A stretch of DNA of 64,000 bases from Syntrophales bacterium (GTDB lineage: Bacteria; Desulfobacterota; Syntrophia; Syntrophales; PHBD01): NCBI GenBank assembly GCA_963668175.1, contig OY764159.1, positions 4,160,001 through 4,224,000 of the forward strand. The letters are read 5' to 3'. How positions within the stretch are numbered: the stretch's first letter is position 1; the number at the start of each line of letters is the position of its first letter. Below, in pieces: positions 2,801-53,442 of the stretch. The position numbers and the translations under genes were made by a program. The notes under the pieces were generated by a model that saw only the letters and a program-made list of their open reading frames with translations, searched no databases and had not been told where the DNA came from.

Positions 2801-3457
2801 CTACTGCCGGGGATATCCGATCGTCTGGGCAAGGATGATCCGCTGGTCGTCCCTTAACATCATGGCTTTTCCCAAGACCACCCTGTCGATATTGCCCCTC
2901 ACGACCGTCGCCAATCCTTCGGAAGCACAGTAGAGATAGACGTTCTGGCTGACAAAACCCGTATCCGTGGCGGAGTAGAAATCCTTTTCCTCGGGAGTCG
3001 CTTTTCCCATTCTGGCCAGATCGGCCACATAAATCAGATTGACGGGGGCTTCCTTGACGTAAGGCTGGCTTCCGGTAACACCCCTGATATCCTGTTTGAG
3101 CAACATCTTCAGGCTATGGGTGGCGGCATCGTAAAGGTAAAGGCCGTCTGCGGTTGCGACATAGATATCGATCTCCTGCCAGTTGTTCGCCGAAGGTGCC
3201 GTTCTCCCGTTCGTCTGCGGACGGTTCACGCCGCAAGCAGCCCAAAGGATATTCGACAAAACGCGGATGGGCAGCTTTTTAGGGCTGAAATTCCGAGACG
3301 TTTTCCTGTCTTTCAACACCTGCATCAACATGCGGCTGCTGTCCATCTGGGGCTTGAGGAGTTTAATCGTCTTCAAATCCTGGGCTAAAGCAACTGCAGG
3401 GAAGAGCAGGAGAATAACCGCGACAAATTTTGCCGTTAGGCAACATCTGATAAACAT
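2801..3457 (-). CDS. Nitroreductase / SagB-ThcOx-family oxidoreductase with signal peptide
   Basis: RKTSRNF, RTAPSANNWQ, DTGFVSQNVYLYCASEGL motifs; AGGAGG upstream of the ATG at 3457; AxA signal peptide. Confidence 0.85.
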   Translation of the reverse strand: MFIRCCLTAKFVAVILLLFPAVALAQDLKTIKLLKPQMDSSRMLMQVLKDRKTSRNFSPKKLPIRVLSNILWAACGVNRPQTNGRTAPSANNWQEIDIYVATADGLYLYDAATHSLKMLLKQDIRGVTGSQPYVKEAPVNLIYVADLARMGKATPEEKDFYSATDTGFVSQNVYLYCASEGLATVVRGNIDRVVLGKAMMLRDDQRIILAQTIGYPRQ

Positions 3458-47032: not shown

Positions 47033-48811
47033 TTAGGAGATATGGTAACTTTTTTCCTGAAACAGCCTGAAGCAGGCATCAACAACAGCGGGGTCGTATG
47101 CCATTCCGCGCTTCTGGCTGATTTCGTCGAGTGCTTTGTCCAAACCGAGAGTGGGACGATAAGGACGATGGGAAGACATGGCCTCTACGACATCGGCCAA
47201 GGCAAGGACCTTGGCTTCCAGCAGAATGTCGTCTCCTTTCAGGCCCAGAGGATACCCCGACCCATCTATTCTTTCATGGTGCTGGTATATGATCCGGGCT
47301 ATGGGCCAGGGGAATTCCATGTCTTTCAGGATGTCATAGCCGATCGGCGAATGGGCTTTGATAAGGTCATATTCGATATCCGAGAGCTTCGTCGGTTTAC
47401 TCAATATTTCCGCAGGGATGGATATCTTGCCTATGTCATGGATCAGTGCCGCCATGGCAATACTGTCGATAATGATAACTTCGAGACCCATTTCCTCGGC
47501 AATGGCCCGGGCCAGATTGGCAACCCGCTGTTGATGGCCCGATGTGTAGGGGTCCCTTATTTCGACCGTCATGGATAAGGTCTGAATAATGGACCGCATG
47601 GCCTTCTTCAGGCTCTCGACAACCTTTCGCTCCTGCTCTTCCGCCTTCTTTCGCTTGGTAATTTCCAGAACGGTACCTTCATAACAGGCCAGGTTGTTGT
47701 CTTGATCGCATACGGCTCTTACGGTGAGGGACCCCCACATGACGCTGCGATCCCTCTTATAGAACTGCGCCTCATAGCCCACAACCGATTGCCGATCCCT
47801 CAGCATTCGGTTGATCCGCCGTCTGTCGCTGGAAGTAACATAAAGCTGACGGGAAATATCGGATATATCGGCAATCATATCCTGGGGCGAATCGTAGCCC
47901 ATGATTCTGGCTAAAGACGGATTGACATCGAGAAAACGTTTTTCCTTCGAGCTTTGAAATATGCCTTCTGTCGCATTTTCAAAAATATTCCGGTATTTTT
48001 TTTCGCTTTCGGAAAGGGCGATCTCCATCTTGTGGCGGCTGGTCACGTCCCTGATAATGCCCCGAAATCCCAGGGGACGCCCCGACTCGTCGGCCATGAG
48101 GGATGCGGACAGTTCGCCGTATACCGGTGCGGATTCCTTGTTCCTGAATTCGCACCGCAAAAGACGGATCGGTTCTGCGGCGTCAACCGCATTTTTAAAG
48201 GCAGATTGCAGCTTACTGTGGTTCGCCTCGTCGAGAAGAGAACTGAAGCCCATCCCGGCGAGTTCGCTTCGCGAGTAGCCCAAAAACCTGCCAAGCGAAC
48301 GATTAAAAAACGTCAGACTCCCCGCAAGGTCCGATTCGAAATAGGCGTCATCGATGCTTTCGAGGATCCGCCTGTATTTTTCCTCCGATTGATACAGCGC
48401 TTCAGCAACCTGCCTTCGTTCGCGGCGCATCATCGCTTCATTCAGTTCTCTTTTAACGGCGGGCACAAGACGGGAAAGATTCGCCTTCATGACATAGTCA
48501 TGCGCCCCGGCCTTCATGGCATTGACGGCCTTGTCTTCACCCACCGCCCCCGAAACGATGATGAAAGGCATATCCAGCCCCATGTCCTTATAGAGCGTCA
48601 ACACCTCAATGACGTCGATCTCCGGCAATCTATAATCGCATATGACGACATCCCATGGCCCGTTTTCAAAGGCATCTTTCAACGTCTCACGCGTGTCGAC
48701 GCGCTGGGCGGTCGTATTGAACCCCCCCCGTTCCAGCTCCATTAAAACGGATAAAAAATCCACCTCCGACGATTCTATGATCAGAACATGAATGTCTCTT
48801 TTCACAACCAT
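47033..48811 (-). CDS. Receiver-PAS-PAS-HD-GYP cyclic-dinucleotide phosphodiesterase
   Basis: Receiver domain, two PAS domains, HDIGK, HHERIDGSGYP, RPYR. Confidence 0.92.
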   Translation of the reverse strand: MVVKRDIHVLIIESSEVDFLSVLMELERGGFNTTAQRVDTRETLKDAFENGPWDVVICDYRLPEIDVIEVLTLYKDMGLDMPFIIVSGAVGEDKAVNAMKAGAHDYVMKANLSRLVPAVKRELNEAMMRRERRQVAEALYQSEEKYRRILESIDDAYFESDLAGSLTFFNRSLGRFLGYSRSELAGMGFSSLLDEANHSKLQSAFKNAVDAAEPIRLLRCEFRNKESAPVYGELSASLMADESGRPLGFRGIIRDVTSRHKMEIALSESEKKYRNIFENATEGIFQSSKEKRFLDVNPSLARIMGYDSPQDMIADISDISRQLYVTSSDRRRINRMLRDRQSVVGYEAQFYKRDRSVMWGSLTVRAVCDQDNNLACYEGTVLEITKRKKAEEQERKVVESLKKAMRSIIQTLSMTVEIRDPYTSGHQQRVANLARAIAEEMGLEVIIIDSIAMAALIHDIGKISIPAEILSKPTKLSDIEYDLIKAHSPIGYDILKDMEFPWPIARIIYQHHERIDGSGYPLGLKGDDILLEAKVLALADVVEAMSSHRPYRPTLGLDKALDEISQKRGMAYDPAVVDACFRLFQEKSYHIS

Positions 48812-49064
48812 CCTTACCTTAACCCGTCAATCGCGATTTCATAAATGCAGACCACAGCGCGAACCGCTGTCGATATTTGGACAACAGAATCCGGCCCTCA
48901 TAAAAGCGGGAAATCTTCTGAAACCGTGTAAGTCTTTACCATACACTTCCCGATTCATCAAGCGTTCTTAAGGCCTGCGAGGAAGGAAAGCGTTCGCATT
49001 TCAGCCGTAAGGATGGTTTTCCTTTTGAAGATATACGGAAGATTGATTTTGTGAGGAAGGCAAT

Positions 49065-49266
49065 AAAAAAGGTGGATGGAAAAGGAGGGAGCCTGAAAAC
49101 CATCCACCGATATAAAAACTGAGAGTCTCTTTTCTAACGCCTCTCAGACAATCCGTCTTAGGGGGTCGGTGGATGGAAAGGAGGGTGCTAAAACCATCCA
49201 CCGAATTTACTATTGGTCCAAATTCTACGACATCGACAGACAATCTTTGAGGGATTAAACCCTTCG
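49065..49266 (-). ncRNA. Candidate sigma54-dependent tandem small RNA with two anti-SD hairpins
   Basis: Promoter at 49276-49292; two GGTGGATGG/CCATCCACC hairpins with CCCTCCTTT loops; the last is followed by T6. Confidence 0.7.
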
Positions 49267-49275
49267 CCATTTAAG

Positions 49276-49292
49276 TTGCAATATCGATGCCA
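49276..49292 (-). promoter_or_regulatory. Sigma54 -24/-12 promoter
   Basis: Minus strand reads TGGCATCGATATTGCAA. Confidence 0.85.
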
Positions 49293-49433
49293 TGGTTACG
49301 ACATGACTCCCTAAATCGCTCAACGGAATTTCAATAGCTGAATATTACGTACATTATTTTATGCAGCGACATAGACGGTTTATCTTTAATAAACTGTGAT
49401 TATTAAAGAATCAAAAAAAAGATTGGCAATAAT

Positions 49434-49526
49434 GTGCGATATTCGCACGGACATAGAGGCAAATCCATACAGGCAGAGGGAGAGAAACTTTGTGCAGATA
49501 ATGCACGGTATGTGCGGTATTCGCAC
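49434..49526. promoter_or_regulatory. Three palindromic enhancer-like sites, GTGC-N7-GCAC
   Basis: GTGCGATATTCGCAC 49434-49448, GTGCAGATAATGCAC 49492-49506, GTGCGGTATTCGCAC 49512-49526. Confidence 0.75.
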
Positions 49527-49537
49527 GCACCGTTGGT

Positions 49538-51679
49538 TCACATGACATTTATGTATTTGTTCACTTTTTTTTGTTCCCGGATAAGCTTGTATCGGGAAAT
49601 ACCCAGCCTCCGGGCAGCCTCCGTCTTGTTGCCCTTGCTCATGGCCAGGGCTTCCGACAGGAGCTTGCCTTTCAAGTCTGTGGCAATCTTTTCAGTCACA
49701 GTCCCGTAATCCATACCTTCCTCGATCAGCGGCGGCAACAGGTTTTCAATCGGCATTTCCGGTTCCCTTTTGCCGGTGACCGCTTTAATCTCAGCCGGCA
49801 GGTGATCTCTGGTAATCACATCACCCAGATTTTGCAGGATCATAACCCTTTCGATGATATTTTTAAGTTCGCGGACATTGCCGGGCCAGGCATACGATTT
49901 AATCGCACTCTCCGCGTCCTTACTGAATACCTTGACCCTTTTACTGAATTTCTTGTTAAACTCCTCGACGAAATGTTGTGCCAGAAGGATAATGTCGTCC
50001 GGTCTTTCCCTCAAAGGGGGTATATGGATCGGAACAACGCTGATTCTATAGAACAGATCCTCCCGAAAAGAACCGTCGGCAACCATCTTATTCAGATCCT
50101 TATTGGTTGAAAAGACGAACCTCACGTCGACGGGGATATTGTCGATGCCGCCAAGTCTCCGTATGTATCCGTCTTCAAGCATCCGCAGAAATTTGGCCTG
50201 CAATTGGATGCTCATGTCGCCTATCTCGTCGAGCAGCATCGTTCCACCGTTGGCGTGTTCCAACAGACCGATTTTTCTCTTCCTCGCATCGGTAAAGGCA
50301 CCCGCCTCATAACCAAACAGCTCGCTTTCGAGCAACGTCCCCGGAATGGCGGCGCAATTGACGTCGACAAAGGGCTTGGTGCTGCGATTGCCCTGCCTGT
50401 GGATAGCCCTGGCGATCAGTTCCTTGCCCGTACCGCTTTCTCCCCGGATGAGCAGATTGGTATTATGGCTTGCCACTTCCCCTATGAGATGAAATATGGC
50501 CACCATCTCTTTCGATTTTCCCCGGATGTTATGGAAACCGAGGAGCCTGTCTTCCCGTTCTTTGAGTTTCTCCACTTCCGTTTTCAAAGACCGGGCTTCC
50601 TGGAAAAGAACGGAGTGCATAATGGAATTGTCGTAAGACGCTGCGGCATTCTTCACCAGGACATCCAGAAGATTGATCTGGTCCTGAGTATAAATACCTT
50701 TCTTCTTGGCCAGATAGAGCGCACCTCTGTATCGATCCTTCATATTGAGGGGTATAACGATTTCACGGGGGTAAACATCGAAAAGAGGAGGGGCATGAAC
50801 ATTGGTTCCCGGCTGTTGAACGATGATGATATTGGAGTCCATTGACTTGCCGATGATCCCCTTTAATATTTTCTCTTCGAATGCGTTCTTGTCGTCTTTG
50901 ATGATCTTCCTGCCGTCGTTTACCAGGCATTGCTTCTTGTGCAGATCCCAGAAGAAGACGAGCACCTCATCCGCGCGCGAGATATCGAGAGCGCTCTTGA
51001 CCAGCACATCTCTGATCCCGTTATCCAGAACATAGCTGCCGTTCATTGTGGATACGGCCTCCTGTAAGACCATAAGCTGCCTGATCTTCTCGGCATTCGT
51101 CTCAAAGAGCCTGGCATTGTGGATGATAATGCTGATCTGGCTTGCAAATGTCAGAAACAGATTGATTTCTTCCGGGAAAAATTTCGTCTCTTCTTCGCTC
51201 CAGGCTGCGAGGGACCCGATGACATCTTCGCCGATTTTGAGCGGTGCGCAAAAGATAGACCCTCTGCTATATATTTTCGTCAGCATCCGATCCGTTTCCG
51301 TGATCCGGTTATCGGTCGCCGCATTTTCTATGGCGATGTGCTGACCCGATTTCGCCACCTTGGTCGCCAGACAATCGTGATCGAGAATATTGACAAAGAT
51401 CGTGAAGGCCCTTTTTTCCTCCTCGGGCGTGTAATTCTTGACTACCTTGGTTTCCAGATACTGCCTCGATTCGTCAAACAGACGGATGATGCCTCGATCG
51501 AACCCGATGCTGTCCACAACCTCGTCAAGGATCTTGGCCAGGATGTCGTCGAGGCGGGAGGGGGCGGTCAAAAGCGTACTGATGCGAAAAATGCTCTTCA
51601 GGAGCTTGTCCTTATCCAACCGGGGTTTTTGTGATTTTAACATCGTTCCGTTATACTCCGCTCTCTTGGGCATATTCAC
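49538..51679 (-). CDS. GAF-GAF sigma54-dependent enhancer-binding protein
   Basis: Two GAF-like domains, GESGTGKE, GAFTDA, FREDLFYR, Fis HTH. Confidence 0.92.
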   Translation of the reverse strand: MNMPKRAEYNGTMLKSQKPRLDKDKLLKSIFRISTLLTAPSRLDDILAKILDEVVDSIGFDRGIIRLFDESRQYLETKVVKNYTPEEEKRAFTIFVNILDHDCLATKVAKSGQHIAIENAATDNRITETDRMLTKIYSRGSIFCAPLKIGEDVIGSLAAWSEEETKFFPEEINLFLTFASQISIIIHNARLFETNAEKIRQLMVLQEAVSTMNGSYVLDNGIRDVLVKSALDISRADEVLVFFWDLHKKQCLVNDGRKIIKDDKNAFEEKILKGIIGKSMDSNIIIVQQPGTNVHAPPLFDVYPREIVIPLNMKDRYRGALYLAKKKGIYTQDQINLLDVLVKNAAASYDNSIMHSVLFQEARSLKTEVEKLKEREDRLLGFHNIRGKSKEMVAIFHLIGEVASHNTNLLIRGESGTGKELIARAIHRQGNRSTKPFVDVNCAAIPGTLLESELFGYEAGAFTDARKRKIGLLEHANGGTMLLDEIGDMSIQLQAKFLRMLEDGYIRRLGGIDNIPVDVRFVFSTNKDLNKMVADGSFREDLFYRISVVPIHIPPLRERPDDIILLAQHFVEEFNKKFSKRVKVFSKDAESAIKSYAWPGNVRELKNIIERVMILQNLGDVITRDHLPAEIKAVTGKREPEMPIENLLPPLIEEGMDYGTVTEKIATDLKGKLLSEALAMSKGNKTEAARRLGISRYKLIREQKKVNKYINVM

Positions 51680-51714
51680 CTTTCATCGCGATGCCGGTGT
51701 GAAAAAACGTCTTC

Positions 51715-52224
51715 TCAGACTTCCTTCAAGATGATGCTCAAGGCCGTTGTCAACTTGACCGTATCCTCATCCGCCTTTCTCAGTCTGGCGCTGACAATCC
51801 TGGATAAATTCAATAAAACGCGATAGCCGAGCTCATGATCCTTCTCGGCAAGCAGCAGGAATTCGTCCTTACTGATTTCATAAAGAATGCAGTCCGTCAA
51901 CGCCCTTATCGTTGCTGTCCGCTTCGATTCCTCCAGCAGCGCAATCTCGCCGAAAACCGCGTGATCTCCTGCACTGAGATGCGTGAATACCTTGCCCCGG
52001 TCCGCATCGTCGTCGTCCATACCCTCCAGGACCAGACTCTTGACGACCTCGACCGTGCCGTCATGCATGATATACATATGGTGGCCGACTTCCCCTTCCT
52101 TCATGATAACGTCACCCTTCTTGAAGGAGACCCGGTGCGTGATGCTGAGCAATTTCGCGATCTGCTCCCGCGACAGGTCTTTAAATAGGGCCGGCTCCGA
52201 TAAAAGCGTTATCTCATCGTTCAT
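51715..52224 (-). CDS. Stand-alone cyclic nucleotide-binding domain protein
   Basis: FGEIALL...RTATIRA phosphate-binding cassette; no HTH. Confidence 0.88.
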   Translation of the reverse strand: MNDEITLLSEPALFKDLSREQIAKLLSITHRVSFKKGDVIMKEGEVGHHMYIMHDGTVEVVKSLVLEGMDDDDADRGKVFTHLSAGDHAVFGEIALLEESKRTATIRALTDCILYEISKDEFLLLAEKDHELGYRVLLNLSRIVSARLRKADEDTVKLTTALSIILKEV

Positions 52225-52260
52225 GGCTTAGCCTCCTGAACTGGGCCTGCGTAAAGGTCA

Positions 52261-53442
52261 TCATATTTTATCGGGCATCGTTTTGGAAAGGATAACGGCA
52301 TAATCATCGGGCCCCACAATATAATCGTCATCGGGGTTGATGACGGCCTTCGATTCGTCCCTTTCGTAAAAGAAATCCTTCTTTGATTCCTTGATCTTTT
52401 CCTTGATAAAACGATCGATCGCCGACGTGTTGTCGGACAGCAGATCGTCCAGCCGCATGGCCTGCTTTTCCTTCAACAGGCCGATTAGAATAGCGTGCTG
52501 CTTCTTTCGGAAATATTGGGACAGCTCCAAAAAGGTCTTGCCGACAAAGGAACCGGGAATACCGACGCGCCAGAGCTTATTGGTATCGCCCAGAGAGATG
52601 ATGCTGTTGAAGACCCTCGGCAATCCAGGGGAATTAATGGCGCTTGCCAGAAGCGACCCGATATGCTCCCCTCGGATGATAATCTCGTCGACACCCGTTC
52701 TCTTCAAATGGGGCTTATTTTCACTATCCAGAATCTCGGCTATCGTCTTGACTTGCGGAGCAATGGACTTGATGGTCAGCGTAGCGAGGATCGTACGTTC
52801 GTCCACTTTATCCTTGGAACGCCCACCGGACAAATCCGCCATGATGAGGGCGAATTTCGCTTTGAGGATACCCGCGCGATGGAGAATATCCTCATGGATA
52901 AAATCTCCGCGAAGGAATTTGAGATCGTAGTTGTGATATTTCAATTTCAGGGATTCGATATCGTCGACGGCCAGTTCATTAATCAGGACGATCGGCGTAT
53001 CGCCCATGGGACCATACATCGTGAGGCCCTTCAGGGCATCTTCGGTGTGTTCGTTCCAGCCGCATATCACAATGTGGTTCTTTCCCTTGATCGTGTCCAA
53101 GCCCCTCCCCTCCTTCATTTTCTTTTCGACAAAAATGGACGCAATGGTTGCAGTGAACAACGACATCAAACCCACACCAAACACGATCAGGATCAAAGCA
53201 ACGATCCTCCCGCCTACGGATACGGGATATTTATCACCGTAACCCACGGTACCCATGGTTACAACAGCCCACCAGATGCTGTCCCAGATGCTTTGAATAT
53301 TCGGCTCGGGTACGTGGCTTTCGAAATAAAAGACGCTGACGGCTGCCAAGCATATAACGGCTAGCGTAATAATAGCAATCTGGAAAGACGCCTGCCGATA
53401 AAGTCTGCCTATGCTTTTAACCGCCCTTGATAGATTCGGCAT
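52261..53442 (-). CDS. Potassium channel with RCK/TrkA-N domain
   Basis: WWAVVTMGTVGYGD selectivity filter, HIVICGW. Confidence 0.92.
   Translation of the reverse strand: MPNLSRAVKSIGRLYRQASFQIAIITLAVICLAAVSVFYFESHVPEPNIQSIWDSIWWAVVTMGTVGYGDKYPVSVGGRIVALILIVFGVGLMSLFTATIASIFVEKKMKEGRGLDTIKGKNHIVICGWNEHTEDALKGLTMYGPMGDTPIVLINELAVDDIESLKLKYHNYDLKFLRGDFIHEDILHRAGILKAKFALIMADLSGGRSKDKVDERTILATLTIKSIAPQVKTIAEILDSENKPHLKRTGVDEIIIRGEHIGSLLASAINSPGLPRVFNSIISLGDTNKLWRVGIPGSFVGKTFLELSQYFRKKQHAILIGLLKEKQAMRLDDLLSDNTSAIDRFIKEKIKESKKDFFYERDESKAVINPDDDYIVGPDDYAVILSKTMPDKI

Follow-up and report, generated by a model that had tools for sequence, protein, structure and literature searches.

Positions 49,065 to 49,526 of a 64,000-nucleotide (nt) stretch of the genome of a Syntrophales bacterium (GenBank assembly GCA_963668175.1, contig OY764159.1, positions 4,160,001 to 4,224,000; the whole stretch is called the window here) hold a locus that very probably encodes, on the minus strand, a regulatory RNA about 200 nt long that the sigma-54 activator encoded next to it switches on. 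As judged from sequence comparisons, there is a strong likelihood that the locus is a structured non-coding RNA gene under the control of sigma-54 and this activator, and the RNA family, found across the syntrophic Syntrophales, is apparently undescribed. The odds that the RNA acts by anti-Shine-Dalgarno (anti-SD) pairing with mRNAs are slightly better than even. To the account as a whole, a dedicated regulatory circuit acting by anti-SD loop pairing, we assign a probability of about 0.6.

In the proposed circuit, the GAF-domain activator would bind three GTGCR-N5-YGCAC palindromes, and a signal sensed by its GAF region would cause it to fire a -24/-12 promoter (coordinates in Table 1). The product would be a non-coding RNA that folds into a first anti-SD hairpin, a C5 linker, a middle hairpin and a second anti-SD hairpin, the last of which would also be the terminator. 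Each large loop would present (U)CCCUCCUUU, which is nearly identical to the 3' tail of the 16S rRNA of the same organism. These loops, and perhaps also the C5 linker, would then pair with the SD regions of mRNAs (AAAGGAGGG) independently of Hfq, and thereby block the 30S subunit and lower translation.

Organization of the locus

The locus was singled out by an original prediction made from the letters of the window. All the elements that it listed are present on the minus strand where it had placed them, including three palindromes, an AT-rich spacer and a near-consensus sigma-54 promoter. The palindromes, given there as GTGC-N7-GCAC, were written as GTGCR-N5-YGCAC for searches. In this form the 64-kb window contains three matches, all at the locus, against 0.14 expected, and three or more matches occurred in 0 of 100 shuffles. 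The promoter, TGGCATCGATATTGCA, is the sole match to TGGCAY-N5-TTGCW in the window (0.12 expected; at least one match in 11 of 100 shuffles). Between palindromes and promoter, the GC content drops to 0.30-0.35, compared with 0.45-0.58 in the flanks, and this base composition would be compatible with a role in DNA bending.

A repeat search recovered the two tandem units with conserved stems, followed by U6, that had been proposed downstream of the promoter; direct repeats with a period of 92-97 nt run across them. The stems of both anti-SD hairpins are perfect inverted repeats (Table 1). When folded, a 209-nt RNA reached -64.4 kcal/mol (z = -3.0), and an equally stable fold was found in 1 of 200 shuffles. 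A simple terminator scan found no terminator at the locus, because the loop of hairpin 2 exceeds the 8-nt loop limit of that scan. The C5 linker is a possible third C-rich seed. Two further inverted repeats in the region 49064-49209 (I1 and I3) join strands of different hairpins, 5' of hairpin 1 with 3' of hairpin 2 and 3' of hairpin 1 with 5' of hairpin 2. Since both anti-SD stems have the same sequence, the RNA may also adopt other conformations or pair between molecules.

Table 1 Features of the RNA locus and its activator gene, in positions of the window
Feature	Position	Strand	Remarks
Sigma-54 enhancer-binding protein, 713 amino acids (aa)	49538-51679	-	N-terminal GAF, AAA+ sigma-54 interaction domain, Fis-type helix-turn-helix (HTH)
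Predicted enhancer (upstream activating sequence, UAS) palindrome 1, GTGCGAATACCGCAC on the minus strand	49512-49526	.	GTGCR-N5-YGCAC match
Predicted enhancer palindrome 2	49492-49506	.	GTGCR-N5-YGCAC match; 20 nt from palindrome 1
Predicted enhancer palindrome 3	49434-49448	.	GTGCR-N5-YGCAC match
AT-rich spacer, enhancer sites to promoter	49293-49433	-	GC 0.30-0.35
Sigma-54 (-24/-12) promoter TGGCATCGATATTGCA	49292-49277	-	GG-N10-GC spacing
Predicted small RNA (sRNA), about 200 nt	49065-49266	-	5' end placed from the promoter, 3' end from the terminator
5' leader	49205-49266	-	Degenerate copy of the GAUUGUCUG module (direct repeat D4) and a weak AU-rich hairpin
Anti-SD hairpin 1	49166-49204	-	11-bp stem (arms 49166-49176 and 49194-49204), 17-nt loop UUUUAGCACCCUCCUUU; inverted repeat I2
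Single-stranded C5 linker (GACCCCC with the stem end)	49161-49165	-	Kept after hairpin 1 in most relatives
Middle hairpin CUGAGAG...CUCUCAG, then UUUUUAUAU	49119-49147	-	Helix 2 of the alignment
Anti-SD hairpin 2, predicted intrinsic terminator	49065-49108	-	9-bp stem (arms 49071-49079 and 49100-49108), 20-nt loop UUUUCAGGCUCCCUCCUUUU, directly followed by T6 (49070-49065); inverted repeat I4

Conservation and covariation of the RNA

The RNA is a conserved family in the order Syntrophales. Using blastn, the element was found in 32 of 41 relatives. A covariance model of the family (R1), which matches the window at 49062-49208 (135.6 bits, E = 7.5e-32), detected it in 123/151 Syntrophales genomes, 96/117 high-quality genomes and 52/62 genera, with one to five copies per genome; in a phylum-wide sample there were matches in 0 of 146 genomes outside the Syntrophales. 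A degenerate hairpin pattern searched over named genomes hit at least 119 stretches. Among the matches listed, the titles were nearly all Syntrophus, Syntrophaceae, Syntrophales or "Deltaproteobacteria" metagenome-assembled genomes (MAGs), and Syntrophus buswellii DM-2 (locus L035) was included. The family is also carried by an S. aciditrophicus MAG (locus L077). The sole non-Syntrophales record among them, from a planctomycete (L068, Planctomycetota), was a chance match at a gene start with no hairpin. In the genomes sampled, the family is restricted to the Syntrophales. The complete 4.57-Mb genome of the organism itself carries one copy, a second R1 match there (E = 0.08) being an unrelated hairpin.

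For the alignment (A1), 54 two-hairpin elements collected with a regular expression were reduced to 36 by removing those more than 93% alike, and to 35 after one sequence caught in another register (L070) had been dropped. On these 35 non-redundant homologues RNAalifold found three helices with 27 pairs, and compensatory changes on both sides occurred in 10 of the pairs. In total, 98.5% of the cells were paired, compared with 36-57% for slid partners, and none of 500 shuffles reached any of the measures. The helices of hairpins 1 and 2 were each 99.1% paired, with both-side changes in three pairs of the former and two covarying pairs in the latter; the middle helix showed compensatory changes in five of its seven pairs. 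The anti-SD stems read GGUGGAUGG/CCAUCCACC, and in the loops the columns CCCTCC and then TTT are invariant.

This comparison changes how the variable part of the tandem units is read. Two variable hairpins had been predicted: CUGAGAG/CUCUCAG (49147-49119) is borne out as a conserved, covarying helix, whereas GAAUUU/AAAUUC is a weak hairpin in the 5' leader that found no comparative support, and a leader comparable to that of the window occurs in one relative (L008). The family layout consists of hairpin 1, C5 linker, middle hairpin and hairpin 2/terminator and not of two equal repeats. The number of anti-SD hairpins per RNA ranges from one to at least three in relatives, the upper figure following from an array (L150:1410-1745, genome G009) with three near-identical anti-SD hairpins, each followed by a C-run, and then a middle hairpin and a plain terminator. 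That array lies directly behind a small open reading frame (ORF) ending in ...EEFFLSDLSGD. Single-hairpin copies were seen unlinked to the activator gene in L027, L031, L041, L044, L073, L081, L085 and L097, at about position 3000 of each locus. They have their own sigma-54 promoter about 101-107 nt upstream, no activator gene nearby, and GAUGCCCUUUCAAA after the hairpin where the linker would usually be. The gene that follows in L044 is convergent and encodes a 458-aa membrane protein.

The aligned homologues share a T-run after the last hairpin, which fixes the transcribed strand as minus, in line with the non-coding minus-strand unit first proposed, an RNA that by the same prediction may be processed into two siblings. 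An ATG-initiated frame of 89 codons (49001-49270, minus strand) spans both hairpins and the hairpins are repeated, so we also considered a protein-coding gene or a dispersed repeat of the REP (repetitive extragenic palindromic) or MITE (miniature inverted-repeat transposable element) type. The 89-aa ORF has no Pfam match, the elements vary in length from 142 to 157 nt, and 20/35 homologues have stops in all three sense frames, which together argue that the element is non-coding. A single copy in its own genome argues against a dispersed repeat, and a sigma-54 promoter of their own accompanies the copies in other genomes. Both readings are almost certainly wrong.

That the sRNA matched nothing familiar also held up. 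At gathering thresholds, Rfam 15 (4227 models, including Qrr, GlmY/Z, CrcZ, RsaE, ar14/cuckoo-type and CsrB/Rsm) gave no match in the whole window, and at E values up to 10 the region 48800-49700 returned noise in the form of Atu_L1 (17.6 bits against a gathering threshold of 60, wrong strand) and mir-1468 (15.5 against 95). A full-text literature search, which did not cover subscription-only papers, found neither an sRNA described in Syntrophus, Smithella or the Syntrophales nor the motif.

Sigma-54 promoter, enhancer sites and activator

The elements upstream of the RNA are conserved with it. We searched for promoters with fixed GG and GC and a score of at least 9 in 79 non-identical loci with 500 nt available on both sides. 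A same-strand promoter was present within 500 nt upstream of the RNA in 71/79 loci, in comparison with 1/79 on the opposite strand and 1/79 downstream. At a score of at least 10, the corresponding counts were 57, 0 and 0. Palindromes of the GTGCR-N5-YGCAC type occurred within 700 nt upstream in 52/78 loci and downstream in 0/78. Their spacing is often the same in the relatives, with a pair 20 nt apart (in L010, L050 and L056, for example, as in the window) and a third about 58-70 nt further. The genome of the organism has about 20 such palindromes, and at the RNA locus alone does a strong sigma-54 promoter lie within 420 nt after one of them; the activator therefore looks largely dedicated to the RNA.

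The activator gene lies immediately before these sites. Its product matches the Pfam families GAF_2 (1e-17), Sigma54_activat (2e-66), AAA_lid_14 and HTH_8, with a sub-threshold hint of a second GAF_2-like stretch (E = 0.04), and rpoN is present in the genome. It meets no NCBIfam equivalog cut-off; the names NifA, FhlA and NorR were tried and rejected, all scores lying under the cut-offs. Solved relatives match the AAA+ core only. Upstream sequence of 1.5 kb or more was available for 90 loci. In 70 of these, the gene directly before the RNA, on the same strand, encodes an activator ortholog (56-76% identity); the remaining 20 are unlinked extra copies of the RNA. Promoter and hairpins recur next to orthologous activator genes in relatives.

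RNA and activator also go together across genomes. A search with aa 1-380, the sensor part, detected the activator in 124/151 Syntrophales genomes (E up to 1e-30). Both RNA and activator were present in 119 genomes, the RNA alone in 4, the activator alone in 5 (one of these resting on a weak match of 1e-31) and neither in 23. The last group includes both families that are wholly devoid of the RNA (0/3 and 0/10).

Two arrangements of promoter and RNA

The distance between promoter and RNA falls into two classes. Of the 57 promoters scoring at least 10, 37 are found 244-461 nt before hairpin 1 and the other 20 at 45-163 nt. An ORF of 60-95 codons separates promoter and hairpins in 26 of the 28 long-spacing loci that were examined (L009, L013, L016, L022, L024, L035, L043, L060, L093 and others). 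The encoded protein is rich in K and E, contains the motif (D/E)FF(L/I/V)(S/P) once or twice, in the latter case often with the second copy at the C-terminus, and is probably disordered; it is referred to below as the FFLS small protein. Its codons vary synonymously, and it is therefore probably translated. No Pfam family matched at E values up to 1. By eye, the 20 nt before the putative starts mostly lack a GGAGG-type SD.

A profile search did not find the small ORF in the organism's own genome (best match E = 0.76), and the promoter of the window and that of the nearest relative (L008) lie 90-93 nt from hairpin 1. Short-spacing promoters without an intervening ORF occur in several families. 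From these arrangements, the RNA is predicted to be the 3' tail of a small-protein mRNA in most relatives, and the stand-alone form described here to be a minority arrangement.

The prevalence of the long arrangement, with 37 of 57 promoters at a distance and the FFLS ORF in 26 of 28 loci, raises an alternative. The RNA could be mainly a cis-acting module in the 3' untranslated region of the FFLS mRNA (a stabiliser, processing site or terminator), and the copy in the window a remnant that lost its ORF and has little function of its own. However, 20 of the 57 promoters, in several families, have no ORF between them and the hairpins. In the organism's own genome, which has lost the ORF, the promoter is still perfect, both loops are intact, and the three enhancer sites and the activator are present. 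The 9-mer of the loop does not vary, a constancy that would be superfluous in a mere stabiliser. That RNA, promoter, enhancer sites and activator are kept where the ORF is missing is the main argument for the RNA itself being the functional product. The remnant scenario is improbable.

Anti-SD loops and candidate targets

The 3' end of the organism's 16S rRNA is GGATCACCTCCTTTCT, with a tail CACCUCCUUUCU. Both loops carry CCCUCCUUU, a near copy of this tail. Because the 16S rRNA ends in ...GGAUCACCUCCUUUCU, the loops GCACCCUCCUUUC and CUCCCUCCUUUUC are near copies of the anti-SD tail and complementary to AAAGGAGGG. This part of the original prediction holds; the repression of mRNAs with strong ribosome-binding sites that it drew from the loops is consistent with the sequence, and no specific target emerged.

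Two RNA-binding proteins were searched for. Hfq (PF17209) was not found in the genome, while it was detected in 5 of 14 control genomes; CsrA (PF02599) was not found in the genome, which is 100% complete, and control genomes were detected. The lack of Hfq fits a GC-rich seed that would pair without a chaperone. If transcribed from the plus strand, the loops would present AAAGGAGGG with its GGA motifs, and the original prediction had named such a transcript, a CsrA sponge, as an alternative. This reading, a CsrA/RsmA sponge, is effectively refuted, since there is no CsrA to be sequestered, and since here as well as in relatives the orientation of T-run, promoter, enhancer sites and activator gene matches a minus-strand transcript.

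Targets were predicted from motif counts and from duplex energies between loops and start regions, using a crude, SD-preselected ORF set. Among the candidate start regions, 136 carry AAAGGAGG and 26 carry AAAGGAGGG. The best duplex in the genome, at -29.0 kcal/mol, involves the gene of a 205-aa MsrB (SelR) (G000:C1:3739644, minus strand; locus L155/L162), whose start region AAAAGGAGGGAGCAUG has 13 consecutive nt complementary to loop 2. We saw no sign of feedback on the activator or the neighbouring genes, the start regions of which have ordinary or weak SD-like sequences only.

Several observations weigh against the proposed circuit, and in particular against its last step. The duplex energies form a broad continuum (mean -14.0, standard deviation 3.1), with 2,612 of 10,953 SD-bearing candidate start regions pairing at -16 kcal/mol or better, and consequently no specific target stands out; neither motif counts nor duplex energies yielded a specific or conserved one. 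Seven ATG-start genes from the top 30 were checked against Pfam and share no theme (MsrB, TrpB, TrpA, a pentapeptide protein, a CoA-transferase, a rubrerythrin-like protein and one without a Pfam match). The stand-alone msrB is itself not conserved in relatives, where MsrB mostly forms the C-terminal portion of a larger protein. Upstream, 8/79 loci have no promoter by the criterion of a score of at least 9. RNA and activator are discordant in 9/151 genomes, and the co-occurrence figures are counts without a statistical test, taken over related genomes that are not independent and of which many are drafts. Finally, 6/10 and 7/10 pairs of the two anti-SD stems never vary in the 35 sequences. The stems are far more invariant than pairing alone requires, which hints at sequence-specific recognition by a protein.

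The invariance of the stems leads to a further alternative, in which near-invariant hairpins sequester a protein that recognizes the C-rich loop or the 16S tail, much as CsrB-type RNAs titrate CsrA, and no mRNA pairing takes place. A modular design with one to at least three identical-loop hairpins per RNA, stem sequences that are almost constant across the order next to a freely covarying middle helix, and a loop that nearly copies the 16S tail would all suit such a decoy. However, no candidate binding protein was identified in the searches, in which CsrA and Hfq were not found, and binding by a factor such as Era has no support here. The sole consistently linked gene encodes a transcriptional activator, and the conserved 9-mer is exactly the anti-SD core and long enough for mRNA pairing. 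We regard a protein decoy as unlikely and prefer translational repression by anti-SD pairing with mRNAs.

A broader variant is that the RNA mimics the 16S 3' tail and, once the GAF activator has sensed a metabolic signal, works as a global translation switch, either by competing with the 30S subunit for strong SD sites or by titrating a factor that reads the 16S tail. This would be a speculative and rather unlikely extension. If true, translation would shift to SD-poor messages, such as that of the FFLS small protein, which apparently lacks an SD and would be co-transcribed with the RNA in most Syntrophales, and obligate syntrophs would have an order-wide, sigma-54-gated reprogramming of translation.

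Neighbouring genes

Two genes precede the activator gene on the same strand, each separated by a gap of about 36 nt (window 49538-53442): a cyclic nucleotide monophosphate (cNMP)-binding-domain protein (51715-52224) and a K+ channel with RCK/TrkA_N (52261-53442). Activator, cNMP-binding protein and channel possibly form one operon, which would be a hint on the signalling context. About 250 nt downstream of the terminator lies the gene of a response-regulator-PAS-PAS-HD-GYP protein (47033-48811, minus strand), likely a phosphodiesterase of cyclic di-GMP. This neighbour is not conserved, many relatives having a convergent gene downstream of the RNA instead.

Within the activator gene (window 49848-49900), several contigs of four DNA runs (X1-X4), which are probably the source of the assembly itself, end or start at 49859-49894, where the summed depth approximately triples. 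The pattern points to a short stretch also present in other loci or strains, and has no bearing on the RNA.

Discussion and comparison with known systems

The Syntrophales (Syntrophus, Smithella and relatives) are key partners in the methanogenic degradation of fatty acids and aromatics. The locus described here offers a ready-made circuit, conserved across the order, in which a sensor-activator and the DNA sites for it are combined with a sigma-54 promoter and with an RNA as effector, whose loops copy the anti-SD sequence, and covariance model R1 can now be used to annotate the family. Because the genome has only one palindrome-plus-promoter site, the activator appears to control little else, and the ligand of its GAF domain would directly identify the physiological signal. 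To the extent covered by our searches, an order-wide family with a sigma-54/activator switch and, as effector, a cuckoo-like RNA with several anti-SD loops is new and undescribed.

The Syntrophales RNA resembles CsrB, RsmY and RsmZ in having repeated hairpins with one short motif per loop. It differs from them in that its transcribed strand shows CCCUCC and not GGA, and in that CsrA was not found in the genome. In sRNAs of the RsaE/RoxS type in Firmicutes, unpaired C-rich motifs would pair with G-rich ribosome-binding sites, and Hfq plays a minor role there. C-rich unpaired motifs and little role for Hfq are shared with these RNAs. The Syntrophales RNA differs from them in taxon, fold and regulators, finds no match in Rfam, and has a longer motif that copies 9 nt of the 16S tail.

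With respect to transcription, the closest parallels are sigma-54-dependent sRNAs. A -24/-12 promoter before a predicted non-coding RNA, an rpoN gene, an adjacent activator with an HTH domain and upstream sites, all found here, are the features by which an sRNA dependent on sigma-54 and a bacterial enhancer-binding protein (bEBP) would be recognized. LuxO-Qrr1-5 and GlrR-GlmY likewise have an enhancer-binding protein, upstream palindromes and a -24/-12 promoter driving a small RNA; paralogous RNA copies in some genomes are shared with Qrr, and an activator that is apparently largely dedicated to the RNA with LuxO/Qrr. CbrB-CrcZ and Pxr, the latter with an NtrC-like regulator, are further sRNAs that depend on sigma-54 and an activator and follow a similar transcriptional logic. 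Unlike Qrr, GlmY, CrcZ and Pxr, the Syntrophales RNA has no sequence or structure match in Rfam. The activator has a GAF sensor and not a receiver domain, and is therefore not driven by two-component phosphorylation, in contrast to the activators of the named sigma-54 sRNAs. The organism, moreover, has no detectable Hfq, which sets the RNA apart from Hfq-dependent sRNAs, and the seed is a generic anti-SD sequence and not a target-specific one.

The closest analogue of the RNA itself is the cuckoo/CcsR group, which comprises CcsR1-4 of Rhodobacter sphaeroides and NfeR-type RNAs of rhizobia. Cuckoo RNAs are described as two to four adjacent hairpins, each with a CCUCCUCCC anti-SD loop and highly variable stems, and a screen of 2,680 genomes placed members only in 78 alphaproteobacteria (PMC4615179). 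For the CcsR unit, another study reports a small protein that binds the RNAs and a promoter using RpoHI/HII (PMC8034643). The Syntrophales family shares several features with them: adjacent hairpins with the same C/U-rich anti-SD motif in each loop (two here, one to at least three in relatives), several copies per genome (one to five in the Syntrophales family) (PMC4615179), and a frequent position behind a small-protein gene with a promoter that uses an alternative sigma factor (PMC4615179, PMC8034643). The FFLS small protein may parallel CcaF1 of the CcsR system.

There are also differences. The Syntrophales loop motif is CCCUCCUUU and not CCUCCUCCC, and its stems are nearly invariant (6-7 of 10 pairs), while cuckoo stems are highly variable (PMC4615179). 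The promoter is of the sigma-54 type with a dedicated GAF activator, instead of RpoHI/HII or sigma-70. The main cuckoo subgroup, CIN1, neighbours a DUF1127 gene, whereas the small ORF of the Syntrophales has no Pfam match; the cuckoo/CcsR RNAs belong to Alphaproteobacteria, the present family to the Syntrophales alone in the genomes sampled. As the Syntrophales RNA lacks the defining sequence features of cuckoo/CcsR, we consider it an independent analogue and not a member. It appears to have arisen independently of the alphaproteobacterial RNAs and yet to resemble them even in the upstream small-protein gene, a resemblance that is useful for asking why such a design recurs.

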